NCBI GenBank assembly: GCA_000165345.1 | Contig: CM000431.1 | Span: forward strand, 992,001 to 1,056,000 | Direction: 5' to 3' | Length of the DNA: 64,000 nt | Notes under the pieces: model-generated | Database searches by the model: none | Told to the model about the DNA's origin: nothing | Seen by the model: the letters and a program-made list of their open reading frames with translations, nothing else | Shown here: positions 2,940 to 53,084 of the stretch, in pieces | Layout of the letters: every line of letters begins with the position of its first letter | Numbering within the stretch: the stretch's first letter is position 1 | Program-made: the position numbers and the translations under genes

Positions 2940-4026
2940 ACAAAAACCGAAATTTTATACCTGAGTATCTTCTCCAACTAGTCCTTTAAAAAATATAAAT
3001 TTGGACAGATTATAAAAATTTGACAAATTTCTATTTTTTAAAAAGTGAATTTTATCCTTGGAAGTAATTATCAATTTCTTTAAATAATTATTTATATTAC
3101 TTTTTAATACTATAACTATCAAACATTTCAGAAATTGTTAGCAAGTTGCAATAAGACCTATTTAATACGCCTAATTTGACTTTAAATAATTAATTGTAAT
3201 TATTAATCTCTTTTTATTAATTAATAATTTATTTGTCAATTTATATTGTGTTTATGTGGGCGCCAATAAATTATTAGAAATTTGAATTAATAGAACATGA
3301 AAATTATTAAAAAGACAAGATTTATCAACAAGTAATAATTAAACACTTGTTCTTATAATAGTTTGTATAAGGAATATTACAGTTTTTTGTTTATTAGTAT
3401 ACATTCTTATTTTTTTAACTTCTAAATTAATTTTGAATGTGCTGATTGCCAATTAGTAACGCACACTTAGTTGCTTTTTATTGCTACCCTATAAAAACAT
3501 TATTTTCTCTTTAACTAAAAATCTGAGAAGGTATTTAATCATGCTTTTTAGTTTAACAGAAATGTATGAACCATTCTGCTCCATAAAAAAATAAGGAAGG
3601 TTTTTTAAAAAAAAAAGAAACAACACCGATTATTAATTAGATATTATGATGGGTAGTATGCAAGTAACACTACTGGACTTCGTATAAAATATTTCAAGAT
3701 ATAGTTTTAGAGAACCTAGTTGAAAAAAGCTAGAAGGTTAATATAATGAATCTGAAATTTTTTCTAAATCATATTCATCTAATAAAATAATTAATATAGT
3801 ATAAGAAAATTGTTGCCTTTTTTCTAAAAGAAATAAAAAAAACTCTATCCATAATTAAATACTTGTATATTAAATAGATATTTTAAACTATAAGCTATAT
3901 TAGCTTGATAACAGTATTCTCCAACTTAATTAGACTAGCGCTAGCTAAGTTATTAATATTAATACAAAATAATATATATTGTGTGCGTGTGTTTTTTTTA
4001 AATAAACTTATCCTAAATGGCTAATA

Positions 4027-4073: not shown

Positions 4074-4169
4074 AGGCGGTAGATATTATGAAAGTTAGTC
4101 AAATATACAAGATTAAATATTACAATTTACCCCAAATTACCAGATAAAAAAAAAATATAAATATATATA

Positions 4170-4205
<36 letters not shown>

Positions 4206-4321
4206 TATATTGTTCATAATTATAAATCATTTACGAAGTACATATTTTCCAAGTAATATATACTACTGAATTACTATTTACAGCTGGAAATTTGCTTACA
4301 GGTTAATTACAAAGATCCGCA

Positions 4322-5071
4322 ATGGCTTCAACTAATATACATAGCCGTCGCAATGAGGACATAGATTTGGAAAGCCAAGAGTTTGAGTCCTTTTCTAAAA
4401 GTGTAAGACATGGCTTCATTCGTCGTGTGTACATGCTTGTAGCTCTACAAGTTTTGTTTGATTTGGCTTTATCATTAATGGTCATAAATGTTCCATCGTT
4501 GAAATTATTCATGCTTAGAAACTTATCAGTTATTAAAATGACTGCTTTTGCATTTGCATTAATTTCATCTTTGTTGTTCTTCTTCTTGTATAACTATTCA
4601 AACTTATTGCAAAATCATTCAAGTAAGATGGCATTTTTCTGTATAATGACAATTTCAGAAGGAGTACTTCTCTCACTATTAGCACTACTTGTTAATACAA
4701 AATATTTGCTAATGGCGCTTGCTTTTACTTCAATCATTGTTATCTCATTAACGATTTTCTCGTTCCAAACAAAGTATGACTTTACATCATATCAAGCATT
4801 CATATTTTATGGAACTATTGCATTTGCAGTATTCTCCACCATTTATATGTTCTTCCCAACTGTCAGAATTATCGAGTTAATTATATCACCGATCGCAATA
4901 TTTTTCTTTTCATTTGCACTTGTGCAAACAACACAAAGCATTATTGGTAATGGAAAGCAAATGATTTACGAGGATGATTATGTTCTGGGAGCCTTATTGA
5001 TTCACTCTTATATTATTGACATTTTCATATATATTTTGAGGTTTATTCTAGCAGTCTTCGAAAGAAACTAA
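4322..5071 (+). CDS. TMBIM / Bax inhibitor-1 / Lifeguard family multi-pass membrane protein
   Basis: 249 aa, about 7 predicted TM helices. The N-terminal RHGFIRRVYMLVALQVL matches the family signature (x-FIRKVY-x-IL-x-QL) that precedes TM1. The size is typical for the family. Confidence 0.6.
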   Translation: MASTNIHSRRNEDIDLESQEFESFSKSVRHGFIRRVYMLVALQVLFDLALSLMVINVPSLKLFMLRNLSVIKMTAFAFALISSLLFFFLYNYSNLLQNHSSKMAFFCIMTISEGVLLSLLALLVNTKYLLMALAFTSIIVISLTIFSFQTKYDFTSYQAFIFYGTIAFAVFSTIYMFFPTVRIIELIISPIAIFFFSFALVQTTQSIIGNGKQMIYEDDYVLGALLIHSYIIDIFIYILRFILAVFERN

Positions 5072-5509: not shown

Positions 5510-6449
5510 ATGGCTGATTCTGATATGAATAATGATCTTCCCACTCTCAGTGGTGCAGATACAGAAACAAACTTTGTTGAAACTGTAAGTTTTACCTCTT
5601 TTCATTAAAATGAGTTACATTATGGGGGGAATATTTGTTTCCATTGAGATCTTGTCTTAAAGATCATTAATGTAACTAATGTTTAATGCAAATTAACAAT
5701 TGCCTTTATTATTAAAAATTATTAACTTATTTTTAATGTAGAACAACGAAATACCGTTATGGGCAATCATTACTATATCCGTCTTATCATGTATGCTAGT
5801 TTGTATTGTAATTGCATTTCTAATTATATACTTCAGAGAAAGGGAAAGAACTAAAACCCGAGAAAGAATTGAAAGACAATTCAGAATGGCAGAGACGAAG
5901 AAGCTGACCAGGTATTTGCAAACTTTAAGAGAAAGGATGATGTTTAGGAACCAAAATGCTCAAATTAACCGTCAGCCAAATTCCAATTTTCAGAATGGAT
6001 TTCCAGTTAATGTTGGACCCCCAAGGGGACAAATGCAGTTTAACCATCCTCCGCCTGTCGGACCACCTCCGCCTGTTGGCCCACCTCCACCTGTTGGTCC
6101 ACCTCCACCTGTTGGTCCACCTCCACCTGTTGGACCACCTCCACCTCAAATGTTTAATCAAATGGGTCATCCTGTCAACTATCCACCTCAAATCCAACAG
6201 CCAGTTTTTACCAATGCTCCTCCATTTGCCCCCCCAGTAATCCCACCACAAAACTTCGCACCTAATTGCTCTGCTCAGCCAATTAATATACCACCGCCAA
6301 ATTGTCCTCCAAACAACTCAAATATTACCCAAGGAACAATTTCTTTAACTGTTCATGACCCATCATTAATACCAGAAGGACCGCCTCCGACTCCACCTCC
6401 TGGATATGTGACTGTTCCGATTGTCTTGCAAAACGAAAACCACCAATAG
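5510..6449 (+). CDS. spliced gene for a single-pass membrane protein with a proline-rich (PPVGPP)x6 tail. Exon 1 is 5510-5584, the intron is 5585-5741, exon 2 is 5742-6449
   Basis: The ATG at 5510 sits in an A-rich Kozak-like context (aaaATGG). There are exactly 25 codons to a GTAAGT donor at 5585. A TAG acceptor ends at 5741. The downstream ORF is open in frame from 5742 exactly. Joining gives MADSDMNNDLPTLSGADTETNFVET|NNEIPLWAIITISVLSCMLVCIVIAFLIIYF..., which restores a complete TM helix. Without splicing that helix would be truncated at the M of the 5793 ORF. Confidence 0.5.
5585..5741 (+). other. predicted spliceosomal intron (157 nt, GTAAGT...TAG, phase 0)
   Basis: Canonical GTAAGT donor. 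ATTAACT branch-like element about 25 nt upstream of the AG, followed by a T-rich tract. The frame is preserved across the junction. Confidence 0.5.
6047..6146 (+). repeat. 18-nt coding tandem repeat (CCACCTCCACCTGTTGGN)x~6, encoding (PPVGPP)n
   Basis: Directly visible near-perfect 18-mer repeats. The antisense ORFs over this tract are mirror artefacts. Confidence 0.9.
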
Positions 6450-6967: not shown

Positions 6968-7975
6968 ATGGTAAAAAGGAGTGCAAAAGAAGTAACCAGT
7001 AATTACAATGAATCATATGAGAATGGAATATATTATAAACAATTAAATAAACAAGATACTAGAAATTCGGACTTCGTAAATGAATTTGAAATAAAGAATG
7101 TAACTACACTTCAAGAGGAAAAGAATAATTATAATAAAAAGTTGATTGAGAATGGGCTGAACAACATTTGCAGAGTAATTGTACTGGATTGGCTTATAGG
7201 GGTACATAGAAAGTTTCAATTCAGGCCTGCAACTATCCATATTGGGATAACTTTATTTGATAGATTTATCAGACTAAACAATAAACACGGATTGATAAAC
7301 TGTGACAATCTTCAATTAGTTGGAGCAACCTGTCTTCACATTGCATCCAAGTACGAAGATATGAACCCAGCGGTTCTATTAGATTACTGTATAATGAGTA
7401 ATTCAGAATTCAATCCTAAAGACATGATAAATATGGAAGTTGAAATACTAAATACTTTGCATTTCAAAATAGCAGATAATACTACACTTATTGACTATTT
7501 GGATTCATTTTTTGAATATGGAATTTTGAAAGGAGTAAATAAAAAAAAGCTACCAAAATATTTCTATTCAAGTGCTTTGTATATATCAGAATTATCTTTA
7601 CTTCACCAAGCAATGATATTTTACCGTCCAAAAGTACTTTCAACATCAATTTTACTACTTCTATGTCTGCTATTTGAAAAAGATGAGTCAGAAAGAAACA
7701 ATTTGTCCATATTAAAAGATTTAAAGTATTCATTAAAAAGATTTTCAAAAATTAATAATATCACAAAGGAAATTCGAATATGTATTAAAAGCTTATTAGG
7801 TATAATTAAAGAACAATTCTTTCTAGAGGTAAAAATTAAAGAAGGATTTGAAAATTCTATTATTGGGGTTAATCCAGAAGAAGAAATACCATTTATATAC
7901 TTGAAAGATTTAACAAGTAAGTGGAGAAATGCATATACAAACTTATATAAGAAAATTTCAAGTTTAAGAACTTGA
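6968..7975 (+). CDS. cyclin (cyclin-box protein, A/B-like)
   Basis: The cyclin N-terminal box at about 7166-7463, ICRVIVLDWLIGVHRKFQFRPATIHIGITLFDRFI...LQLVGATCLHIASKYEDMNPAV...MEVEILNTLHF, matches the consensus MRAILIDWLVEVH...ETLYLTVNIIDRFL...LQLVGVTAMLIASKYEE...MEHLILKVL. Confidence 0.75.
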   Translation: MVKRSAKEVTSNYNESYENGIYYKQLNKQDTRNSDFVNEFEIKNVTTLQEEKNNYNKKLIENGLNNICRVIVLDWLIGVHRKFQFRPATIHIGITLFDRFIRLNNKHGLINCDNLQLVGATCLHIASKYEDMNPAVLLDYCIMSNSEFNPKDMINMEVEILNTLHFKIADNTTLIDYLDSFFEYGILKGVNKKKLPKYFYSSALYISELSLLHQAMIFYRPKVLSTSILLLLCLLFEKDESERNNLSILKDLKYSLKRFSKINNITKEIRICIKSLLGIIKEQFFLEVKIKEGFENSIIGVNPEEEIPFIYLKDLTSKWRNAYTNLYKKISSLRT

Positions 7976-12518: not shown

Positions 12519-13958
12519 ATGGCAAACTATAGTTTAAATTGCTGTTTAATAGCTTTAAGCGTTTCTTTGTTATTTGGGATAAACTTGTCCATATTAAACT
12601 TCACAGGTCCCTATGTGCTTTTGGATTATGAATTATGTGGGAAAGAAGGAACTCTCTTGGAGAGATCAAACTGTGAAAATGGATCTTATGCAATGTATAA
12701 GATGACTTTGGCATTCTTTACAGCATCTTTATTGAGTTGTTTTGCTGTTAAATATGTTGTAGGAAGAAGTCGTACTTTTGGACTTAAAGTGGCTTTAATT
12801 CCTTTTGCTGTTGGTGGAATTTTATCCAGTTTTGCCCCTAATTTCAAAATCTTTTGTATTGGAAGATTTATAAGTGGAGCCTCTTTAGGACTTTCAGCTG
12901 CTTCAGTTACATATATTTCCGAGATTTCACCAAAACATAGAAGAGGTTTGTATACAACTCTTTTTGGTCTATTTATCCCTGCAGGGCAAACAATTTCATA
13001 TATTTTGGGAGTATTTCTACCAATTATAAAGTATTTGGATGAATCTGATCTAGAATTTTATATTCTCTACTGTAGATTCCTTTTCTTAATTCCCACAATA
13101 ATCTCATTAATAATGATTATTGCAGTCCGCTTCTATTGTAAAGATGAAACTCCTTGTTTCTTATTATCAAAGGGAAGATTTTCAGAGGCTGAAGAGCTTC
13201 TTTATAAGATTTATCAAGATACTTCAGTTGTTTCAAGTGAAATGGAATCCTTATTAACAAGTAATAGGAGAAGCATTGAAGAGGATAAGATAAGTCAAAA
13301 TGTATCTTATTCAATGCTATTCAGCAGAAAGTACATTCTTCCAACATTTGTAACTCTTGTTATAACTGTTGGAGTAAGTGGAAGTGGAATTGGTATTTTC
13401 GCTCAAAAGATGAATTCATTAATTGAATCAGCCTCTGGTCTTCCTCAAGAAAAAGTTATTTATATTGTAATATTTACTTCAGCATTTGAGACAGTTTCTT
13501 GTTTCTTTGGAGGACATTTAATTGAGAAATTTGGAAGAAGAAATGTTGCAATTATTGGTTCTGCAACTAACTCACTATCTCTACTTCTTCTTGGATTATT
13601 TACAATTTTTAAGAACTACATTTCCAGCGTTGTTATTCCAGTTGTTTCAATTATTGTATTTTCTACCTTCCTTGCTTCATTCCAGCTAGCTCTTTCACCA
13701 GTATTATGGGCATATGTTCCAGAAGCACTTCCAACAGAAATCCGATCTACAGGAATGGGTCTATCGTCAATCTTAAATTGGTTGGTCAGTTTGATTTACA
13801 TACCTCTATCTTACATTATTTCGGATTTGAGTGTGTATGCTTTATCATCCATTTGTTGTGGTATTCTTTCCATTATTTGCTTCTTCTTTATGAAAGAAAC
13901 TAAGGGATGCTCAGTATCACCATATGAAGAAGATTCAGTTAAGAATCCAGATCTCTGA
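12519..13958 (+). CDS. MFS sugar-porter-family transporter (hexose-transporter-like), 479 aa, about 12 TM
   Basis: Sugar transporter signatures are present: GRFISGASLG (TM4 R-x-x-x-G), ETPCFLLSKGRFSEAEE (PESPR-x-L-x-KGR-x-EA-like motif after TM6), EALPTEIRSTGMGL (PE-x-xP-x-x-R-x-G after TM10) and a C-terminal KETKG (PETKG signature). Confidence 0.75.
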   Translation: MANYSLNCCLIALSVSLLFGINLSILNFTGPYVLLDYELCGKEGTLLERSNCENGSYAMYKMTLAFFTASLLSCFAVKYVVGRSRTFGLKVALIPFAVGGILSSFAPNFKIFCIGRFISGASLGLSAASVTYISEISPKHRRGLYTTLFGLFIPAGQTISYILGVFLPIIKYLDESDLEFYILYCRFLFLIPTIISLIMIIAVRFYCKDETPCFLLSKGRFSEAEELLYKIYQDTSVVSSEMESLLTSNRRSIEEDKISQNVSYSMLFSRKYILPTFVTLVITVGVSGSGIGIFAQKMNSLIESASGLPQEKVIYIVIFTSAFETVSCFFGGHLIEKFGRRNVAIIGSATNSLSLLLLGLFTIFKNYISSVVIPVVSIIVFSTFLASFQLALSPVLWAYVPEALPTEIRSTGMGLSSILNWLVSLIYIPLSYIISDLSVYALSSICCGILSIICFFFMKETKGCSVSPYEEDSVKNPDL

Positions 13959-24970: not shown

Positions 24971-25753
24971 ATGCCTCAGAATGAATATATTGAATTACAC
25001 AGAAAACGCCACGGATATAGGTTTGATCACTTTGAAAAGAAAAGAAAGTTTGAATCACGAAAAGTCCACAAAGATTCTCAACATGCTCAAAAACTCAGAG
25101 GTATAAAGGCTAAGCTTTACAATAAGAAGAGATATGCTGAAAAGGCCACTTTGAGAAAGTTAGTCAAAGCTAACGAGGAGAAAGATGCAGTTGAAAAGGA
25201 CCCAGAAAATGTACAGAAAGGTGCAGTTCCATCATACTTGTTGGACCGTGAGGGAGTTAATCGAACAAAGATTCTAAGTAATATGATAAAGCAGAAAAGA
25301 AAGGAAAAATCTGCAAAGTGGCAAGTACCTATTCCAAAAATTAAGGCTTTGAATGAAGATGAAATGTTCAAAATCTTAAGAACTGGTAAGAGACAGAAGA
25401 AATCATGGAAGAGAGTTGTCAATAAAGTTTGTTTTGTCGGAAATGACTTTACTAGAAAACCACCAAAGCTCGAGAGATACATTAGGCCAACTGGGCTAAG
25501 ATTTAAAAAGGCTCATGTTACACATCCAGAACTTAAGACCACTTTTTACCTTGATATTGTTTCCATCAAGAAAAATCCACAAAGTCAACTATATACTACA
25601 TTAGGTGTAATTACTAAAGGTACTATAATTGAAGTAAATGTTAGTGAACTAGGTCTTGTTACACAAACCGGTAAAGTTGTATGGGCAAAGTATGCTCAGG
25701 TAACTAATAATCCAGAAATTGATGGTTGCATTAATGCTGTTTTATTAGTTTAA
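24971..25753 (+). CDS. NSA2: ribosome biogenesis protein NSA2 (TINP1) homologue
   Basis: Near-collinear match over the full 260 aa to eukaryotic NSA2: [26 protein letters not shown]..., [117 protein letters not shown]. Confidence 0.92.
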
Positions 25754-37425: not shown

Positions 37426-39561
37426 TTAGTCACTATCATCAAATGTGGTACTTGTGCCCTGGAAGGTTGTAGATGAGTTATTCTTTGCAGGCCTGTTATT
37501 AGCACCGCCACGTCCTCCACCTGACCCTGCACCTCTTCCACCACCACCATTCTTTCCTAAGGCAATTTCAATAGTTACCTCTCTTCCATTCATTGAAGTA
37601 CCTGATAACTTGAGAGCATTTTGAATTTGTTCATCATTTTCAAATTCAACCATAGCGAAGCCTCTCATTTTTCCAGTATCAGAATATCTAGGAATAGAGA
37701 CTCTTTTGACTACACCACAACCATTGAAAAATGATTTAACTGATTCATCATCGCTTGAAAAAGGAATGTTTCTAACGATGACTGAAGGACCATATCCTCC
37801 GCTTGATAGACTTCCTGGTTGAGGCTTGTCTGCTGACATGTTAATCCTTAACATTCTACCTTTATATTCTGTTTGATTCCATTGGATTGCTGACTTGGCT
37901 CCTTCTTCTTGTTCGAAAGTAATAAAAGCGCATCCCTTATCAGAAAGAACTGATACTCTTTCAATAGATCCGCATTCTTCAAACAGACCTCTAATCTCCT
38001 CCTCAGTGCAAGAATATGGAAGGTTGCCACAATATACTTCTCTAGAGTCTTTGTTATTTGTATTCTGTCTCTTTCTTGGTTGACTGTTATCATCATTTCC
38101 TTGATAAGAACGCTTTGGAGTATCATTCTTTGTAATTTTGTTTTCCTTGTTATTGTTTAGCTCGCTTTCTGCTTTTCTCTTACTCTTATTCATTTCAACT
38201 TCTGATTCTGATGAAGAATTTGATGATTTCACAGATTTCGATACTTTTTTGGCTTTTTCATTATCGCTTTCAGAGTCTGATGAGCTGGATGAATCAGAAG
38301 AAGAGCTATCAGACATTGCTTTCTTTGCCGTAGTTGATGCTGCTGCTTTGGTATTCTTCTTTGGTTTCTCGTCTTCTGAAGATGAAGAATCAGAAGAGCT
38401 TGAAGAATCTGAAGAACTATTTGATATGTTCTTCTTCATTGGTGTTGCTGCTTTAGCATTCTTCTTTGGTTGTTCATCTTCAGAAGAAGAGTCTGAATCA
38501 GAAGATGAAGATGAAGAGGAGCTATTTGAAATATTCTTCTTCATTGGTGTTGCTGCTTTAGAATTCTTCTTTGGTTGTTCGTCCTCAGAAGATGAGGAAG
38601 AGTCTGAAGATGAGGAAGAGGAAGAGCTATCAGACATTGCTTTCTTTGCTGGAGTCGATGCTGCTGCTTTAGAATTCTTCTTTGGTTGTTCATCCTCAGA
38701 AGATGAAGAAGAGTCTGATGATGAAGAACTATCAGACATTGCTTTCTTTGCTGGAATCGATGCTGCTGCTTTGGTATTCTTCTTTGGTTGTTCGTCCTCA
38801 GAAGATGAAGAAGAGTCTGATGATGAGGAAGAGCTATCAGACACTGCCTTTTTTGCAGAAGCTTGTGTTGTTACCTTAATATTCTTCTTTGGTTGTTCGT
38901 CCTCAGAAGATGAGGAAGAGTCTGATGATGAAGAACTATCAGACATTGCTTTCTTTGCTGGAGTTGGAATTACTGCCTTAGTATTCTTCTTTGATTTCTC
39001 ATCCTCTGAAGATGAAGAATCAGAAGAGCTTGAAGAATCTGAGGAACTATTTGATATGTTCTTCTTCATTGGTGTTGCTGCTTTAGCATTCTTCTTTGGT
39101 TGTTCATCTTCAGAAGAAGAGTCTGAATCAGAAGATGAAGATGATGAAGAGCTGTTTGAGATACTCTTCTTCATCGGTGCTGCTGCTTTGGCATTCTTCT
39201 TTGGTTGTTCATCTTCAGAAGAAGAATCTGAGTCAGAAGATGAAGATGAGCTATTTGAGATGTTCTTCTTCACTGGTGCTGCTGCTTTGGTATTCTTCTT
39301 TGGTTGTTCATCCTCAGAAGATGAGGAAGAGTCTGATGATGAAGAACTATCAGACATTGCTTTCTTTGCTGGAGTTGGAATTACTGCCTTAGTATTCTTC
39401 TTTGATTTCTCATCCTCTGAAGATGAAGAAGAACCTGAAGAAGAATCAGTAGAAGATTCTGGAATCTTAGTATTATTCATTTCAGACTTCTTAGAACCCT
39501 TTTTATTATCGTTACTCTTATTCTTAATACTTGTTAGCTTCTTTTCAGCCTTCTTTACCAT
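37426..39561 (-). CDS. nucleolin-like nucleolar RNA-binding protein (NSR1/GAR2-like): Ser/acidic repeat N-terminus, two RRMs, C-terminal GAR (RGG) domain
   Basis: About 11 degenerate repeats of poly-Ser followed by SSEDEQPKKN[AT]KAA[AT]P[MV]KKNISN. RRM1 is VYCGNLPYSCTEEEIRGLFEECGSIERVSVLSDKGCAFITFEQEEGA (RNP2 and RNP1). RRM2 is VIVRNIPFSSDDESVKSFFNGCGVVKRVSIPRYSDTGKMRGFAMVEFEN. The C-terminal GGGGRGAGSGGGRGGANN is a GAR domain. Confidence 0.8.
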   Translation of the reverse strand: MVKKAEKKLTSIKNKSNDNKKGSKKSEMNNTKIPESSTDSSSGSSSSSEDEKSKKNTKAVIPTPAKKAMSDSSSSSDSSSSSEDEQPKKNTKAAAPVKKNISNSSSSSSDSDSSSEDEQPKKNAKAAAPMKKSISNSSSSSSSSDSDSSSEDEQPKKNAKAATPMKKNISNSSSDSSSSSDSSSSEDEKSKKNTKAVIPTPAKKAMSDSSSSSDSSSSSEDEQPKKNIKVTTQASAKKAVSDSSSSSSDSSSSSEDEQPKKNTKAAASIPAKKAMSDSSSSSDSSSSSEDEQPKKNSKAAASTPAKKAMSDSSSSSSSSDSSSSSEDEQPKKNSKAATPMKKNISNSSSSSSSSDSDSSSEDEQPKKNAKAATPMKKNISNSSSDSSSSSDSSSSEDEKPKKNTKAAASTTAKKAMSDSSSSDSSSSSDSESDNEKAKKVSKSVKSSNSSSESEVEMNKSKRKAESELNNNKENKITKNDTPKRSYQGNDDNSQPRKRQNTNNKDSREVYCGNLPYSCTEEEIRGLFEECGSIERVSVLSDKGCAFITFEQEEGAKSAIQWNQTEYKGRMLRINMSADKPQPGSLSSGGYGPSVIVRNIPFSSDDESVKSFFNGCGVVKRVSIPRYSDTGKMRGFAMVEFENDEQIQNALKLSGTSMNGREVTIEIALGKNGGGGRGAGSGGGRGGANNRPAKNNSSTTFQGTSTTFDDSD
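37950..39470 (-). repeat. in-frame coding tandem repeats (about 110-130 nt units) encoding serine-rich/acidic nucleolin N-terminal repeats
   Basis: The SSEDEQPKKN...KAA.P.KKNISNSSSS block is reiterated about 11 times with variation. The complementary strand gives a long spurious ORF (38138-39667) with matching periodicity. Confidence 0.8.
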
Positions 39562-45488: not shown

Positions 45489-48400
45489 TTATGCATCAAT
45501 CAATCTAATAGGGATCCTAATAAACTTGCAAACACCAGAACTAGTTACCTGGTCTAAGTCTTTAATACTAACAAATCCTGAGGGAATATAATTTTGTAGC
45601 TCTTCCCATTTCAAATTTTCTAAATCTTGTTGAGTTGCAATCAAGAACTTTTGCGAACTTAGAATTAAATTAAATGTATCAATAAATGTTTGAAAATCCA
45701 ATTTTTTCAAAGATGGCTTTATCTCTCGTAAAACATTAAATATGCTTATCCTGGAAGTTATTTTAAATAATAGTCTTGATTCGTAAGACCCAAGCTCAGA
45801 CCCTAAATCTTCATTCAAAAGTATTTTATTCTTTGCTTGGTCAAATATCTCTTTTCGAATATTTGTAATAAAAGTGATAAGATTATAAAAAATATCTAAA
45901 ACCTTTTCAGAGAGGACTGAAACATTGTCTAGCCCTGATAATTTAATAGCCAGTCCAATATGTAAAGCTTCATTAACATTTGGGAAAAATTCAATTTCTG
46001 CTCCAGATAAAGAAAGCTTTTCATTGAAAATGGTAAAAATATATTCAAATACGATTTGGAATGCAACTGATTGTGAATTAAAGTATGAAAATGGAACATA
46101 TAATAGTGAATTTGAGTTCAAAGAATTATTTAAGCTTATTTTATTTAAATAATAATAGTTTGTGGTAATTCGACAACAAAGAGGATCAATAACTTTCCAA
46201 GTTTGAATGGAGCTTTTAATGGGGCTAAGTTTCGAAGAAACTTGATTGTTCTTGCCACTTTTATTACGTATTCCTGACGTGAATTGATTCAATATTGTAT
46301 AAGCCTGAACTGGATTTGCGTTTCCAAGCAATGCGCCTTCCAATGATCCATTATTACATAATAGTAAGGACAGTTCCAAAATTTGTTCAAGAGTAATTGA
46401 ACTGTAATCGCTTTCCAAAGATAAAATCGATGTTTTCTGCTCTTCAAAAATTGATTTCAAGAATAACCGAGATACTTCGCTCAAACTTCGATGAATATTC
46501 TCAGATTTGACTTTGTTTTGAATAGCTTGTTTAATCTCTTCAAACTTTTCCTGAGAAATGATTCTGTTCAAATGAAGGATTTTTTTAGATAATGATCTAA
46601 TAGCTAAAAAAATTGAACCTAAGAATCCTTTGATTTTGATTTCAACTCCAAAAGGAACTCCACCAAGTTCTGATTTCAGGATACTTGAAATCAAAAAGAC
46701 TCCTTCAATGCTTTGCATTTGATTAATTATATCTCCAGCTGAATAATTAATACAAGCAACTAAAACTTCAAGTGATAAAATTAGATCTTTGATGGATTTA
46801 GTATGTACCAAATCAATAATAGGTCTGTTTAAAACACTTTTATTGTTTTCAAGCTTTTTTGGTTCTGGAAGCATTATTCTAAGGAAGAATGTTGCAGAAG
46901 GAGCCTGGTAATTTATGTTATTGAAAAAAATAAAGCTGCTATATACTGGATAATTAATATTGTCTTTAATCTTTTTATGAAGACTTTTAAACTTTGGTGA
47001 ACTTTCTGTTGATAAGTAATCTAAAACTGCATTTTTTAGAATTGTAGGTGTGTATATTCGATAGCTTGCACTGCTTGAAAAATTTAGTAAGGGAGTGTTA
47101 CCCAGAAGTTTGTTTCTTTTCCTGATTCTGAACTCAATAGACTTTGCACGAATCTGGCTAACTGCAGAATTTACTTGGGTGAAAAATTCGGCAGAGATCT
47201 TTTCTACAATGTACTTATTATTGAATATTGGGCAAGTTCTAAACTCAATATCCTTGTCTTTAGAACTGATCAATTTTGAACTTGGATTGGTCTCAATCCT
47301 CTTCTCTTGTTCCTGTGCCTGTTCTTGTTTCTGTACCTGTACCTGTTCTTGTTCTTGCTCCTGTCCCTGTTCCCGTTCCTGTTCTTGTTCCTGTTCCTGC
47401 TCTTGATCCTGCATAAAATTAAGTTCATGTTCTTGTTTTAAATATGAATCTTTCTCAATTTGAGAATCATCGTTATCCTGGCCTTTGCTTGCCAATAAGG
47501 GATTATTATTCCTATTCGGAATTATAGGGTTATTATTTATAGGAGTATTTACATTCAATTCTGGAATAATACCCTGGTCTTTATTCAATATACCAAAATT
47601 ACCTTTATGAAAATCCGTGAGTTTTACAAAAACGAGCAAATTTTCTATAGAAATTTTATTCAAAAATGCAGAAATCTCTTCAAAGCTTGAATCCCTTATA
47701 AGATTTCCAGCAATAAGAACCTCCTCGGGAGAGCATCCCTTAATATCAAAAGAATCAATAATCTGTTTAGATATCTGCCTTGGAGAAACATCAAAATAGT
47801 AATCGAACTTGTATTTGAGTATCTGCTTGATCTCAGCAAGAATCTCTTGATTTACGGGAGAAGATTTAATATGTTCTAAAGCAATAAAAGTTGTCTGAAT
47901 AATTGATTTAATCTTATCAATTCCTTTAGACGTAAGTAAAAACCTGATTTCAAAACTTGAAAATGAGTACCTGTGAGAATTGGTTACTGCATCCATCTTT
48001 GAGATCCATCCTTTTTTTATAAGAAAATTGCTCAAACTCTTCTCAGAATTATCTTTGAGTAAATATTCTAAATAGGAACTTGGAGAAGAATCCCAAAGAA
48101 CTTCCTGATAATCTATGGGAAACTCGAGAATTAGCTCATTAATAGAATGAGCTTTAACATAAATAGCGTTTCCAACTACTCCAAGGTGAGGATGGCGAAC
48201 TATTTTTGCTAAGTCAAATGGAAGTGGATTGGAAATATTCAAATTCTTAACCAAAGAAAAGTTTAAAACTACTTCATTTGACAATTTAGCTATAGTATGC
48301 TTACTGGCTACGACTAGAGTCATAATACTAGAGCTGTACTGTTGATAATAGAAATTCTTTACTTGTTCAAGTAAGTTAATCTCTGAAATCTCTCTAGCTT

Positions 48401-49094
48401 CTTTAATTGATTTATCAGTAAGAACATTTAATCTCTTAAATATATGGTCATCCAAAGAAATGTCTCTTATAACACATTGAAACAAAAACTCACTATTATT
48501 CAGTAAGCTCTCAAATGTACCAGAATATTCTTTAGTCTTGGCAAAAAATAATTTCTCAGGAAATGAAGGATTCCTAATCATGTCGCTCAATCTGTCCAAA
48601 ACTGTTGAAATATATTGACTTCCAACCTTTATAGTAAATACTGAATTTCTCTCATAAACTTCCATGTCTATTTCTCCATTAATTGAAATAATAAAGTTAC
48701 AAAAATTGGAATGATCGAAAAACCGATAGGTTCCTAAACAAAGTGATTCTTGTACCAAACTTACAAGACCTGGAAGATCCTCAGGGTCCATAACAGATCC
48801 AACTCCAACAGAGAGAGTAATTATTGAATATTCAAAGTTATTATTTGATACAAGAAACACTGACATCTGATTCTGAAGTTTCATGAATTTATATGTAGAA
48901 CCATCTATCTTTGATTTTATAAATGATGAGCTCTCTACCTCGCTTACTGTCCTCCCTAGTTTTGTTATTATAGGCTTCGCCAAACATGAGCTAAACCTTG
49001 AGATAACATCAAGTTTTTTTCCATTCTTAAATTTCTTCGCCGAAAATGCTAACACAATTTGAGTAAACAACCAAAAAATATGCAATAGCCTCAT
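45489..49094 (-). CDS. insulinase-like (M16A) secreted protein, paralogue 2; HxxEH replaced by SLVQE; contains an internal (QE)n low-complexity insert
   Basis: Signal peptide MRLLHIFWLFTQIVLAFSA. YKFMKLQNQMSVFLVSNNNFEYSIITLSVGVGSVMDPEDLPGLVSLVQESLCLGT corresponds to the M16 active-site region without the His residues. The C-terminus has IPSGF. Confidence 0.8.
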   Translation of the reverse strand: MRLLHIFWLFTQIVLAFSAKKFKNGKKLDVISRFSSCLAKPIITKLGRTVSEVESSSFIKSKIDGSTYKFMKLQNQMSVFLVSNNNFEYSIITLSVGVGSVMDPEDLPGLVSLVQESLCLGTYRFFDHSNFCNFIISINGEIDMEVYERNSVFTIKVGSQYISTVLDRLSDMIRNPSFPEKLFFAKTKEYSGTFESLLNNSEFLFQCVIRDISLDDHIFKRLNVLTDKSIKEAREISEINLLEQVKNFYYQQYSSSIMTLVVASKHTIAKLSNEVVLNFSLVKNLNISNPLPFDLAKIVRHPHLGVVGNAIYVKAHSINELILEFPIDYQEVLWDSSPSSYLEYLLKDNSEKSLSNFLIKKGWISKMDAVTNSHRYSFSSFEIRFLLTSKGIDKIKSIIQTTFIALEHIKSSPVNQEILAEIKQILKYKFDYYFDVSPRQISKQIIDSFDIKGCSPEEVLIAGNLIRDSSFEEISAFLNKISIENLLVFVKLTDFHKGNFGILNKDQGIIPELNVNTPINNNPIIPNRNNNPLLASKGQDNDDSQIEKDSYLKQEHELNFMQDQEQEQEQEQEREQGQEQEQEQVQVQKQEQAQEQEKRIETNPSSKLISSKDKDIEFRTCPIFNNKYIVEKISAEFFTQVNSAVSQIRAKSIEFRIRKRNKLLGNTPLLNFSSSASYRIYTPTILKNAVLDYLSTESSPKFKSLHKKIKDNINYPVYSSFIFFNNINYQAPSATFFLRIMLPEPKKLENNKSVLNRPIIDLVHTKSIKDLILSLEVLVACINYSAGDIINQMQSIEGVFLISSILKSELGGVPFGVEIKIKGFLGSIFLAIRSLSKKILHLNRIISQEKFEEIKQAIQNKVKSENIHRSLSEVSRLFLKSIFEEQKTSILSLESDYSSITLEQILELSLLLCNNGSLEGALLGNANPVQAYTILNQFTSGIRNKSGKNNQVSSKLSPIKSSIQTWKVIDPLCCRITTNYYYLNKISLNNSLNSNSLLYVPFSYFNSQSVAFQIVFEYIFTIFNEKLSLSGAEIEFFPNVNEALHIGLAIKLSGLDNVSVLSEKVLDIFYNLITFITNIRKEIFDQAKNKILLNEDLGSELGSYESRLLFKITSRISIFNVLREIKPSLKKLDFQTFIDTFNLILSSQKFLIATQQDLENLKWEELQNYIPSGFVSIKDLDQVTSSGVCKFIRIPIRLIDA
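47286..47412 (-). repeat. imperfect hexanucleotide (CTGTTC/CTGTWC)n coding repeat giving QEQEQEQEQEREQGQEQEQEQVQVQKQEQAQEQEK
   Basis: Directly visible tandem 6-mer repeats on the plus strand. They lie in frame inside paralogue 2. Confidence 0.85.
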
Positions 49095-49808: not shown

Positions 49809-52800
49809 TCAATTGAAAACTGTATTTGGATGTTCAAGAAGGCATTTATAATCGTTTTTAATATCTTTATAACCACTTGGAATGAAGTCCAGAGAAGTCT
49901 TGGAAGCCTTCAAATTATTTACTTTTTGAGTGGCAATCATAATACGCGGAACAGTTTCTATATCAGATAACAAATTAGAGATGTCGGATGGCTTCATTTT
50001 ATTTAAATATTCTCTAGTACCACCAACAAGATTTAAAATACTAATTTTCGATAAAAGAAACTTTGTTTCAAAGACATTATCTGCAAAATTCATATTTTCG
50101 AAGATTTTATTAACATAACTCTTGGATTTATGGCTTTTAAGAACCTTGGAAATGGATTGATTTAATTCTTTGTCTAGAATTCTATTTAATGTTCCTGCCA
50201 AAAATTCAATGCTCCTGATGCTCAGCGACACTACAACAAAATTATTCGCAACAACTGATAAAGAGGAAGCGAAATCAATTTTTTTGTCTGACGAAACTCT
50301 AGATGAAATTTCATTAGACAAAGCTTCTTTGATAGCAGATGCCTTAATAATGCTTGGAACTGTTAATTGACCAATAAGTAATACAACTGTTGAGTAAGAA
50401 GCATCAGCAGTAAAGTCTAACTTATGAGTATACATACTTTTATATTCATTTGGAATAGTGGAAATATCCAAAATAGATGTATTAATTTCTATCGGAACGT
50501 AATTATTGGAATCATTCTTATCATTATTGTAAACTTCCTTGTTAAAGAAATTTAAACTGTTTTCTTCGTTAATTTCCATTGAGAAGAACTCATGGCCAAG
50601 ACCTTGAATAAACACATTCAAAATGTGATTGGCATGGAAAGGAGTGAGGTTACCTTGAATAAGGCCATAAATAGATGGAGATGCGAATAAAGAAGAATAT
50701 ACTATTCTGACAAGCTCGATATCGAAATCATTCTCAAGAAAAGCACCAAGTCTTAAAAATGAACAATGCTGGGAAGAAACTATTTGAGTAACAATTTTTA
50801 GATCCTTTTCAAATTGTGTATAACCTTTATAGAGCCTCAATAAAGTACTTTTAGCAGCTCTCTTCGCGCTAATAATTATTTCCTCTGTTAAGTAGCTATC
50901 AAAGGATAAAATAGTATTTAAAACGTCATTCATGATTAAAGTAAAATAGTCGATTGGTGCATTTACAACTAGAAATATTTCAAATGGATCTGAAATTATA
51001 TCGCTAAATGATTGAGCTGGAATAAAGCCAATATTTGATTTCAATCTATTTGTATAGTACAAAGTTTCACTTAGCTTAATGTTTAGAATTGCAGTCAAAA
51101 TGTGAATTGTAGCAAGAATTAAAAAAGAAGAAACTTCACCGTTAAACTTTTCTAATAAAGGACTCCACTTGCGTAAACCAAATTTCAGCTCAAGATTAAC
51201 GCTCTTGCTAAATGATCCATTATTGGAGAACCATATTCCAGATGTGGTAATCGATTTATATGCCATTGTACGAGATATTATGGTCTCACTGCCCGATTCC
51301 TTAAGATATTTGTAATGGATATCTAACGACTTGTGTAAATTAAGTAACTTTTCAAAAATAGGCATTGAGTGGAAAAATGGTAAAGAGATATTGCTGATTA
51401 AATCATTGTTCGGTAATTGTAAGCCAAATGTATCAACTGCATATGTTGGACTTAAGGAAGAAAGTTTATTGGATAAAATATCAGCCGTTTTAATTATAAA
51501 AACTCTAATATTCGTGTGAGGCTCAACTGTTTCAACTGGGAATATTTCAAACTTTTCATTTTTTTTAGTAATAACTGACAAAGGATTCAATTGATCAAGA
51601 ATATGAAGAGTAACTGTAATCGAATCCAAGTTCATTTTTGAAATGAAATGCTCAACATTTGCGCGTATAAACTGAGTGTTAATATTTGAATTGAGAATAT
51701 CGGATGAAGGTCTGGACATAATGAAATGCGAACTTAAATAGTTCTCTATAGCCTCCGACAAAATTACTGTTGACTTGGTAAGGTGATAATTGAATAAATT
51801 CTGTGCTTCAGCGAAAAGTCTGTCGCTAGCAACAGTCCTCTTTATTAAATTGAGGTAAGAAGCTATGGATTCAATTATAATTGGAATATTTTGTAATCCT
51901 TTTTTAGTCAGATTCACTTCCAAATACAAAATAGTGGTGGTATATTCAGAATAGTAGTAACTATTTACATTATTAGCAAATCTATTCATAAAAATAAAGT
52001 TCAAAATACCACTTCTATGTCTGGAATTGAGTATGCTTAATATAAAAGCCTGTCCATTGGATGCAAGTGATTCCAAATCATAAGTTTCAAATGGTATATA
52101 AAGCCTCAAAATATTTGTATGGAAGCCATTTCTTAAAACAATATTACTTGTCAAGTTTTTGATAGCCATGTTGGCTATATTGATTTTATTATAATCTAAA
52201 TCTTCTTTCTTTCTGAGCTTACCTTTTGTCAATGAAGAAAGCCCTTTAATGAGACTTGAATTATTTAATTTACCAATGAATATTGCGGACATGGCATGAG
52301 GCTTGAAGATACTATTAACAATTTGTCTTGAGTATTTTGGTAATTCAACATCCAATTTAATAGAACTCTTGAAACAGGATTGCGAGAAAATGCTCGAAAT
52401 TTGTAATTGTTCGCAACCAAGTGATGGTAAACTACCGTAAATCATTCTAATCATAAGCTTGTCAACCTCAATTGAACTTGGATCATCAAGAATTCTTTCA
52501 AATTCTTCCGATGCTTGTAGAATTTCGATTAAATAAGAACTATTTTCTAAATACGATTGGTTTTTAATAGTATTGAGAAAACAGTCAAAGAACTTATTTG
52601 TTTTTTCGGTTAAAAATGTGAATATCAAAGTAGATCTGGTTGCATCTATCTTAATTTTAAAATGAGCATGAGTCTCCTCCTTAAAAACCTTACTCATACA
52701 AACATTCACTTGTTTGCTGAATATAAATAGAGCAAAATATCTAATACCAGGTAACTGTATTGGATCGGAGGAACTTCCACTATTAAAAGTTATTCTAAAA

Positions 52801-53084
52801 TTAGAATAAGAACTTTCAAATGGCTGCTGAATGTTAAACAAAGTGAAGCCATTATTGAATGACTTTCTTGAGATTAAAACATCTTCATTAAGATAAACAT
52901 CTCTGTATTTAAAAGTTTCAAGGCCATTCTCGTCACTAACTTTTTCTAACTCTAATAAAGAATGGGAATAATGTAGCCTACTCTTTGAACCAATATTACT
53001 GCTAATTGGATTTTCATTAAATAAAAACAAGCATGCGACTGAAATCAAAATAATTAGTCGAAACATGCTTATATTCAATATCAA
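49809..53084 (-). CDS. insulinase-like (M16A) secreted protein, paralogue 3 (1091 aa); active-site motif degenerate (GIRYFALFIF)
   Basis: Signal peptide MILNISMFRLIILISVACLFLF. FKYRDVYLNEDVLISRKS...SGSSSDPIQLPGIRYFALFIFSKQ is the positional equivalent of the YRxLxLxNGLxVLLxSD...[11 protein letters not shown] block. The C-terminus has IPSGY. The size and architecture match the neighbouring copies. Confidence 0.7.
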   Translation of the reverse strand: MILNISMFRLIILISVACLFLFNENPISSNIGSKSRLHYSHSLLELEKVSDENGLETFKYRDVYLNEDVLISRKSFNNGFTLFNIQQPFESSYSNFRITFNSGSSSDPIQLPGIRYFALFIFSKQVNVCMSKVFKEETHAHFKIKIDATRSTLIFTFLTEKTNKFFDCFLNTIKNQSYLENSSYLIEILQASEEFERILDDPSSIEVDKLMIRMIYGSLPSLGCEQLQISSIFSQSCFKSSIKLDVELPKYSRQIVNSIFKPHAMSAIFIGKLNNSSLIKGLSSLTKGKLRKKEDLDYNKINIANMAIKNLTSNIVLRNGFHTNILRLYIPFETYDLESLASNGQAFILSILNSRHRSGILNFIFMNRFANNVNSYYYSEYTTTILYLEVNLTKKGLQNIPIIIESIASYLNLIKRTVASDRLFAEAQNLFNYHLTKSTVILSEAIENYLSSHFIMSRPSSDILNSNINTQFIRANVEHFISKMNLDSITVTLHILDQLNPLSVITKKNEKFEIFPVETVEPHTNIRVFIIKTADILSNKLSSLSPTYAVDTFGLQLPNNDLISNISLPFFHSMPIFEKLLNLHKSLDIHYKYLKESGSETIISRTMAYKSITTSGIWFSNNGSFSKSVNLELKFGLRKWSPLLEKFNGEVSSFLILATIHILTAILNIKLSETLYYTNRLKSNIGFIPAQSFSDIISDPFEIFLVVNAPIDYFTLIMNDVLNTILSFDSYLTEEIIISAKRAAKSTLLRLYKGYTQFEKDLKIVTQIVSSQHCSFLRLGAFLENDFDIELVRIVYSSLFASPSIYGLIQGNLTPFHANHILNVFIQGLGHEFFSMEINEENSLNFFNKEVYNNDKNDSNNYVPIEINTSILDISTIPNEYKSMYTHKLDFTADASYSTVVLLIGQLTVPSIIKASAIKEALSNEISSRVSSDKKIDFASSLSVVANNFVVVSLSIRSIEFLAGTLNRILDKELNQSISKVLKSHKSKSYVNKIFENMNFADNVFETKFLLSKISILNLVGGTREYLNKMKPSDISNLLSDIETVPRIMIATQKVNNLKASKTSLDFIPSGYKDIKNDYKCLLEHPNTVFN

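Follow-up and report, generated by a model that had tools for sequence, protein, structure and literature searches.

The polyproline array of a small membrane protein of Cryptosporidium parvum is probably a tolerated expansion, specific to this species, in the linker of a putative adaptor, and the conserved functional element of the protein lies outside the repeat; we put the probability of this reading at roughly 0.7. Most orthologues lack the (PPPPVG)n motif, which therefore cannot carry the function that the protein has conserved. A more promising candidate for that function is a proline motif at the extreme C-terminus, which is kept throughout the sequences aligned.

The window, that is, the whole stretch of 64,000 nucleotides that was analysed, belongs to chromosome 3 of C. 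parvum. Four proteins encoded in the neighborhood of the repeat match annotated C. parvum proteins exactly (Table 1), which bears out the guess of a first-pass annotation that the DNA comes from an apicomplexan. The G+C content of the window is about 29%, and its long open reading frames are tightly packed. The repeat-bearing gene has the Bax-inhibitor gene cgd3_4030 on one side and a cyclin gene on the other, comprises two exons on the + strand, and encodes a product of 260 amino acids. By its position the gene is presumably cgd3_4040 and, likewise by position, CPATCC_001431. A literature search by this gene name retrieved no paper, and both the array and the protein family appear to be undescribed in the searchable literature.

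Table 1. Features of the repeat-bearing gene and its neighbors (positions within the window; strand given where reported).
Feature	Position	Strand	Sequence or content	Basis or remark
Bax1-related protein Cgd3_4030 (Bax-inhibitor gene cgd3_4030)	4322-5071			exact C. parvum protein match
Exon 1	5510-5584	+	MADSDMNNDLPTLSGADTETNFVET; acidic N-terminus, predicted non-cytoplasmic	translation
Intron, 157 nt, 24% GC	5585-5741	+	GTAAGT...TAG	GT-AG conserved in position
Exon 2 with stop codon	5742-6449	+	transmembrane helix, juxtamembrane helix, Pro-rich linker, C-terminal motif	translation, ORF list, orthologue alignments
Transmembrane helix, aa 31-56	5757-5834	+	LWAIITISVLSCMLVCIVIAFLIIYF	Kyte-Doolittle peak; pLDDT >90
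Basic juxtamembrane helix	5835-5966	+	RERERTKTRERIERQFRMAETKKLTRYLQTLRERMMFRN...	almost invariant in the genus; helical in the AlphaFold2 model
Linker, predicted cytoplasmic and disordered	5967-6353	+	Pro/Gln/Asn-rich, contains the array	pLDDT mostly <60, no secondary structure
18-nt tandem array, 5.7 copies, in exon 2	6045-6146	+	HPPPVG + 4 x PPPPVG + PPPP	Tandem Repeats Finder and in-frame reading
Unit 1	6045	+	CAT CCT CCG CCT GTC GGA = HPPPVG
Unit 2	6063	+	CCA CCT CCG CCT GTT GGC = PPPPVG
Unit 3	6081	+	CCA CCT CCA CCT GTT GGT = PPPPVG
Unit 4	6099	+	CCA CCT CCA CCT GTT GGT = PPPPVG	identical to unit 3
Unit 5	6117	+	CCA CCT CCA CCT GTT GGA = PPPPVG
Partial sixth copy	6135	+	CCA CCT CCA CCT = PPPP	followed by CAA ATG
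C-terminal module	6354-6446	+	HDPSLIPEGPPPTPPPGYVTVPIVLQNENHQ	invariant; core PEGPxPxPPPG[FY]VxVP
Cyclin gene	6968-7975			exact C. parvum protein match
Hexose transporter 1	12519-13958			exact C. parvum protein match
NSA2	24971-25753			exact C. parvum protein match

The gene is real and under purifying selection, with orthologues, a conserved intron, and a low dN/dS. Exon 1 opens with the ATG at 5510 and is 25 codons long. The GT-AG intron that follows it occupies the same position in all five loci compared (C. parvum, C. hominis, C. tyzzeri, C. meleagridis, and C. muris). The junction that splicing creates, MADSD...ET/NNE, is common to the annotated proteins of C. hominis, C. meleagridis, and C. 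ubiquitum, in agreement with the spliced model. The annotated C. hominis protein (P0048) has the same N-terminus and that of C. meleagridis a near-identical one, and a product of 260 amino acids is annotated at the same position in the assemblies GCA_048859185.1 and GCA_015245375.1. For exon 2, the dN/dS (Nei-Gojobori) is 0.06 with respect to C. hominis, 0.17 with respect to C. tyzzeri, and 0.15 with respect to C. meleagridis. An exact look-up of the spliced 260-residue C. parvum protein in the protein collection gave no match, and the same was true of the start variants MLVCIV, MNNDL, NNEIPLW, and MAETKK. The listed open reading frame begins at the methionine at 5793, within the hydrophobic segment, and its frame is open back to the TAG at 5739-5741. 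Four frames are open across the repeat, namely the three on the forward strand and one antisense. Two overlapping frames were considered as genes and rejected: an antisense ORF of 108 amino acids (5925-6251), which is open only through the repeat, and an ORF in the +2 frame (5956-6240), whose openness is due to the repeat only.

Regarding the architecture of the product, the Kyte-Doolittle profile (19-residue window) reaches its maximum, 2.93, at residues 31-56, and no other segment exceeds 1.6. The protein is thus predicted to cross the membrane once. The 30-residue N-terminus contains no Lys or Arg and seven Asp or Glu, while the 30 residues past the helix contain 11 Lys or Arg and five Asp or Glu. 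According to the positive-inside rule, these flanking charges predict a short N-terminus outside and a cytoplasmic tail of 204 residues, as in a type III signal-anchor; the single N-proximal helix, the lack of a cleavable signal peptide, and the charge difference all agree with such an anchor at the level of prediction. The first-pass annotation, which described a single-pass membrane protein with the repeat in its cytoplasmic tail, is consistent with this topology. In the AlphaFold2 model, computed with the orthologue alignment, one continuous helix (residues 6-75 of exon 2) spans the transmembrane and juxtamembrane regions, and what lies beyond the helix is unstructured and of low confidence (mean pLDDT of 56 for the model). 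The tail distal to the juxtamembrane helix consists of approximately 32% proline. A Pfam scan of the C. parvum protein and two orthologues found nothing above the cut-off, the weak matches being driven by the transmembrane helix. Likewise, the only matches in a profile search of the sequences of solved structures (PDB) were transmembrane segments of integrins, which matched by chance, with E >0.2.

The family is found throughout the genus. A search for orthologues, proposed as a check in the first-pass annotation, recovered them in C. hominis, C. tyzzeri, C. meleagridis, C. ubiquitum, C. canis, C. felis, C. bovis, C. xiaoi, and C. ryanae by homology, and in two more Cryptosporidium species from sequencing runs (Logan). 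A profile search of 1.84 billion representatives gave five matches at E <=0.001, three of them Cryptosporidium representatives. This search added the C. muris orthologue and a distant homologue of 280 amino acids (P0056) which has the same architecture and C-terminal motif as the C. parvum protein. The fifth match is weak and corresponds to an unrelated-looking protein of 1,435 amino acids (P0057). P0056 is a transcriptome sequence with the accession prefix GHVN01, which in a published table is that of the archigregarine Selenidium pygospionis (PMC10304595); the assignment of P0056 to Selenidium is made solely via this prefix. C. meleagridis, C. hominis, C. tyzzeri, and C. muris all have the Bax-inhibitor gene, the repeat-bearing gene, and the cyclin gene in the same order as C. 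parvum.

The alignments of these orthologues contain two near-invariant blocks. The first is the juxtamembrane helix, in which YFRERERTKTRERIERQFRMAETKKLTRYLQxLRERMM is essentially invariant and residues 57-95 form a run of invariant columns. The second is the C-terminal DPSLIPEGPPPxPPPG[YF]VTVPIVL, whose core, PEGPxPxPPPG[FY]VxVP, is identical even in the Selenidium homologue and in C. muris. The linker is the least conserved region and, in the two orthologue alignments, accommodates all the length variation. It also contains every non-synonymous difference from C. tyzzeri (six) and from C. hominis (four), the transmembrane and juxtamembrane segment and the C-terminus having none in either comparison. 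The dN/dS is 0.10-0.19 in the linker with respect to C. hominis, C. tyzzeri, and C. meleagridis, and, in the transmembrane and juxtamembrane segment, 0 with respect to C. tyzzeri and C. hominis but 0.25 with respect to C. meleagridis.

Within the C-terminal block, PPPG[FY] is invariant in 14 of 14 distinct sequences from the two orthologue alignments. The aromatic residue is Tyr in C. parvum and Phe (PPGF) in C. bovis, C. xiaoi, C. muris, and the Selenidium homologue. A motif scan of the C. parvum protein found exactly one PPxY (PPGY, residues 244-247), which overlaps YVTV, a match to the YxxPhi pattern. The peptide around G246 and Y247 reads DPSLIPEGPPPTPPPGYVTVPIVL. A conserved PPxY, the mark of a WW group I adaptor, is not found, given that Tyr and Phe alternate among orthologues; a conserved PPG followed by a hydrophobic residue, the mark of a GYF-domain ligand, is present across the aligned sequences. 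The PPG[FY] core is therefore a closer fit to the PPG-hydrophobic class of GYF ligands than to the strict PPxY class that WW domains recognize. In this sense, PPGF is an experimentally defined ligand of a GYF domain (PMC5657617), and the invariant PPPG[FY] resembles PPGF-type ligands such as plant SMG7, which binds PSIG1.

A functional analogy may also be drawn with CD2. This is a single-pass receptor whose cytoplasmic tail binds the GYF domain of CD2BP2, and the C. parvum protein is predicted to share with it the single membrane passage, the proline-rich cytosolic tail, and a PPPG-x motif. Known GYF ligands act mostly in RNA biology and not at membranes, the CD2 tail being the exception. Unlike CD2, to which it has no sequence homology, the C. 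parvum protein carries its candidate motif embedded in the longer invariant PEGPxPxPPPG[FY]VxVP, an indication that the interface would be more extended. The conserved C-terminal PPG[FY] motif is, in any case, a better functional lead than the repeat.

The same residues could be read as those of a PY-motif adaptor of the Ndfip/Bsd2 type, in which PPPGY would recruit a WW-HECT ubiquitin ligase, or YVTV would serve as a sorting signal, and the repeat would be a mere linker. A small membrane protein with a proline-rich cytosolic tail and a PY motif is indeed typical of such adaptors; Ndfip1/2, yeast Bsd2, PMEPA1, and WBP1 are built in this way, and the single PPGY of C. parvum, overlapping YVTV, falls inside the invariant C-terminal block. 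However, the C. parvum protein differs from all of them in having one motif only, in lacking homology, and in that several orthologues have Phe in place of the Tyr. Both the recognition of PPxY by WW domains and that of YxxPhi by the adaptor mu subunit need the Tyr hydroxyl. A strict PPxY-WW interaction or a Tyr-based sorting signal is for this reason disfavored, and we regard this alternative as unlikely.

The repeat itself is a tandem array with a period of 18 nucleotides. Tandem Repeats Finder placed it at 6043-6146, with 5.7 copies, 93% matches, and a score of 157, and none of 20 shuffles of the window gave any array with a score >=100. The array is in codon register and is the sole run of four or more prolines in the 64 kb, considering any frame open for at least 100 amino acids. 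The existence of the tandem array where the first-pass annotation had located it is thereby corroborated; its count of six perfect PPVGPP repeats has to be corrected, since there are five full VG units (or five non-overlapping PPVGPP) and a sixth copy that is only partial. The same annotation called the array nearly perfect at the DNA level, which is a fair description of an identity of approximately 92-93% but an overstatement in that eight of the 102 bases differ from the consensus unit and only units 3 and 4 are identical. Of these eight mismatches, six are synonymous third-position changes, and the remaining two create the His codon of the first unit, at the 5' end of the array. The identical pair is central and most of the divergence is found in the edge units, which is the pattern expected of recent internal duplication. 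The fact that the full PPPPVG units differ by synonymous changes only is compatible both with purifying selection on the peptide and with youth of the array.

The number and type of units vary among closely related species. At the codon level, C. parvum has five VG units and no IV unit. C. hominis, with a protein of 253 amino acids, has the arrangement VG-IV-VG-VG (three VG units and one IV unit), with the last proline changed to leucine. C. tyzzeri and C. meleagridis have PPPVG-PPPPIV-PPPVG-PPPP (two VG units and one IV unit), so that C. hominis contains one additional PPPPVG with respect to both. At the protein level, C. ubiquitum has units of the PPPPQ type, and the (PPPPVG)n repeat is absent from the remaining species, including C. 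felis, C. bovis, C. ryanae, and C. muris. On either side of the array, C. parvum, C. hominis, C. tyzzeri, and C. meleagridis have the same protein sequence (QFNH... and ...QMFNQMG). The state of C. parvum is explained by the loss of a 15-nucleotide segment encoding IVPPP and the gain of two units, which accounts for the seven additional residues with respect to C. hominis (260 versus 253). As the number of units differs among close species while the flanks are conserved, the comparison supports a recent expansion by slippage, with homogenization, that is specific to C. parvum in its five-unit form. The claim of the first-pass annotation that the expansion is recent agrees with the copy numbers observed across species (five, three plus one, two plus one, and zero); an invariant number among divergent species, which would have spoken against recent slippage, was not seen.

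For variation within C. parvum, two independent chromosome-level assemblies (GCA_048859185.1 and GCA_015245375.1) were inspected. The array is identical base for base in both, and the suggestion of the first-pass annotation that the tract is a likely length-polymorphic marker found no positive evidence in this pair. Exact look-ups of C. parvum alleles with three, four, six, or seven VG units found none in the protein collection, from which the five-unit protein is absent as well, and so they say nothing about polymorphism. Short-read Logan contigs obtained from many C. parvum runs are interrupted in the array: L007 stops at the two identical units, L012 and L013 begin at them, and there are approximately 20 more contigs of this kind. 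These breaks show only that the isolates concerned have at least two identical units.

The explanation that we propose is that replication slippage or unequal exchange expanded and homogenized an older, short PPPVG/PPPPIV motif in the linker. The array would most likely act as a stiff polyproline-II spacer, lengthening the tether between the two invariant modules, namely the membrane-proximal basic helix and the C-terminal PEGPxPxPPPG[FY]VxVP. At most, it may offer a multivalent polyproline surface of low affinity. The protein as a whole may be a membrane-anchored adaptor that displays its C-terminal motif to a cytosolic proline-recognition domain. It is important to note that every orthologue retains at least one run of three to five prolines in the linker. 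For this reason, selection for some polyproline is possible, and adaptation instead of neutrality could lie behind the C. parvum expansion.

A bolder version of the adaptor model goes further in this direction. The protein would then belong to a new adaptor family found only in Cryptosporidium and gregarines, its C-terminal motif would dock a GYF-type or otherwise unusual proline-recognition module at a membrane of the parasite, and the (PPPPVG)5 of C. parvum would have been selected as a multivalent platform, for example for profilin. We consider this combination improbable as a whole; if it were true, the expanded tract would contribute to species-specific biology.

The first-pass annotation had looked for the function in the repeat, as polyproline of the class bound by profilin, EVH1, WW, and SH3 domains, and had suggested that it could be involved in actin or formin recruitment at membranes, in gliding, or in invasion. 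According to this proposal, (PPPPVG)n would be an FH1/VASP-like ligand at the membrane, recruiting profilin-actin or EVH1/SH3/WW proteins for actin assembly, gliding, or invasion. In favor of this proposal, GPPPPV units at six-residue spacing are like the profilin-binding motifs of FH1 and VASP, the array has its GPPPP-x units in tandem at a spacing of about six residues and in a disordered segment, as the proline-rich regions of formins and VASP do, the tail is predicted to be cytosolic, and all orthologues retain a proline run in the linker. Plasmodium profilin, moreover, binds proline-rich peptides (PMC4427158). However, unlike formins and VASP, the C. parvum protein is membrane-anchored, lacks FH2, EVH1, EVH2, or any other Pfam domain, and contains runs of four prolines only. 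A regular-expression scan of the 260 residues found neither the EVH1 consensus ([FWYL]PxPhiP) nor the SH3 consensuses ([RK]xxPxxP and PxxPx[RK]). Nor is the repeat conserved: C. parvum has five units, its closest relative C. tyzzeri has two, and C. felis, C. bovis, C. ryanae, and C. muris have none, and so the conservation of polyproline among orthologues that a profilin ligand should display is not observed. According to a review of the apicomplexan actin system (PMC4427158), the profilins of this group bind polyproline weakly, binding to proline-rich peptides is apparently absent in that of Toxoplasma gondii, and the FH1 domains of apicomplexan formins are only rudimentary. The weak binding, the rudimentary FH1 domains, and the lack of conservation of the repeat together make a role in profilin or formin recruitment, or in gliding, quite unlikely.

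Finally, it is hardly credible that faulty assembly produced the copy number, or that the polyproline peptide is unreal because the coding frame lies on the other strand, despite the breaks of L007, L012, and L013 inside the array and the four frames open over it, since the two chromosome-level assemblies agree base for base, de Bruijn assemblers break at a duplicated 31-mer, which itself needs at least two identical units, and the + strand frame has conserved orthologues, a conserved intron, and a low dN/dS.

The preferred reading, a tolerated expansion in a linker, places the array in a well-known kind of feature, in which an in-frame repeat has expanded in one lineage within a disordered linker. 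The closest parallels are the coding minisatellites and microsatellites of Cryptosporidium, such as the poly-Ser tract of gp60 and the MLVA loci. As in these, a short unit is repeated in frame, its copy number varies between close species, the inner units are identical, and the array lies in a low-complexity, unconserved part of a conserved protein. Unlike gp60 and the MLVA loci, its unit encodes polyproline instead of Ser/Thr, and the array is the same in the two C. parvum assemblies inspected. Published typing loci, to the extent that they could be searched, do not include the C. parvum array. The array provides a clean difference in length between species, and flanking primers might be used to size it, the flanks having been compared at the protein level; in addition, it is a site at which short-read assemblies break. 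Its practical value is modest.

From a biological point of view, these results correct the tempting reading of a conspicuous polyproline repeat as the functional core of a protein, given that the repeat is the least conserved part of this one. They draw attention instead to an uncharacterised small membrane protein, present throughout the genus, with an invariant juxtamembrane helix and an invariant C-terminal proline motif. Both modules are leads for an adaptor that may be specific to the lineage of Cryptosporidium and the gregarines.

In C. parvum, assemblies built from short reads (Logan) are consistently interrupted inside the PPPPVG array, at its two identical units. Because the contigs break there, the repeat-bearing gene is divided, and its full-length protein is absent, in about 20 public C. 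parvum assemblies. The two other open frames that span the proline repeat (108 and 94 aa) were rejected as genes, their openness being due only to the repeat, which is stop-free in both frames. For length polymorphism, the (AT)28 microsatellite is a more obvious candidate than the proline repeat. A further simple repeat, (TGTTCC)17, encodes an (EQ)n tract in an insulinase-like (Peptidase_M16) protein.

Features of the window, with positions in the window
Feature	Position	Strand	Context
(AT)28 dinucleotide microsatellite	4155-4210		intergenic, immediately upstream of Bax-inhibitor gene
Overlapping ORF, 108 aa, RWRW-rich	5925-6251	-	spans proline repeat
Overlapping ORF, 94 aa, HLHLL-rich	5956-6240	+, other frame	spans proline repeat
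Break points of C. parvum contigs (L007 end; L012 and L013 start)	about 6104-6110		two identical PPPPVG units
Long ORF, 1317 aa	8231-12184	+	no Pfam domain
ORF, 2878 aa	15867-24503	-	UBR box, PRT6 C-terminal domain
Long ORF, 699 aa	26040-28139	+	no Pfam domain
Long ORF, 863 aa	29057-31648	+	no Pfam domain
Large imperfect tandem array	38300-39444	-	within ORF 37426-39561
Five large ORFs, 1091-1290 aa	41268-62100	-	head-to-tail
(TGTTCC)17 hexanucleotide repeat	47308-47411	-	within ORF 45489-49094

Among the other large ORFs, the 2878-aa product is, from its UBR box and PRT6 C-terminal domain, an E3 ubiquitin ligase of the N-recognin type. The absence of Pfam domains from the three long plus-strand ORFs refers to matches at E <= 1e-5; for the 1317-aa ORF, faint Hira / CAF1B beta-propeller matches appear in related loci, as annotation or flanking. 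The large imperfect array (periods of 102, 105 and 207 nt; 71-76% identity) encodes about 10 acidic Ser-rich / Lys-rich modules (SSSSSEDEQPKKN.KAA...KK). The protein is nucleolin/Nopp140-like, carries two RRM domains and has a GGRG-rich tail at the C-terminus. Peptidase_M16 / M16_C domains are present in four of the five head-to-tail ORFs, the fifth (49809-53084) giving no Pfam match; the cluster therefore represents insulinase-like protease paralogues arranged in tandem.

With regard to the repeat-bearing gene, the orthologues differ at the N-terminus. The C. muris protein CMU_032200 starts with MGTTTSQ (within 3001-3033 of the C. muris locus L014), which is similar to an N-myristoylation signal, whereas the orthologues of intestinal Cryptosporidium species start with MADSD or MSELE. 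If this putative signal is used in C. muris, it would clash with the predicted topology, in which the N-terminus lies outside.
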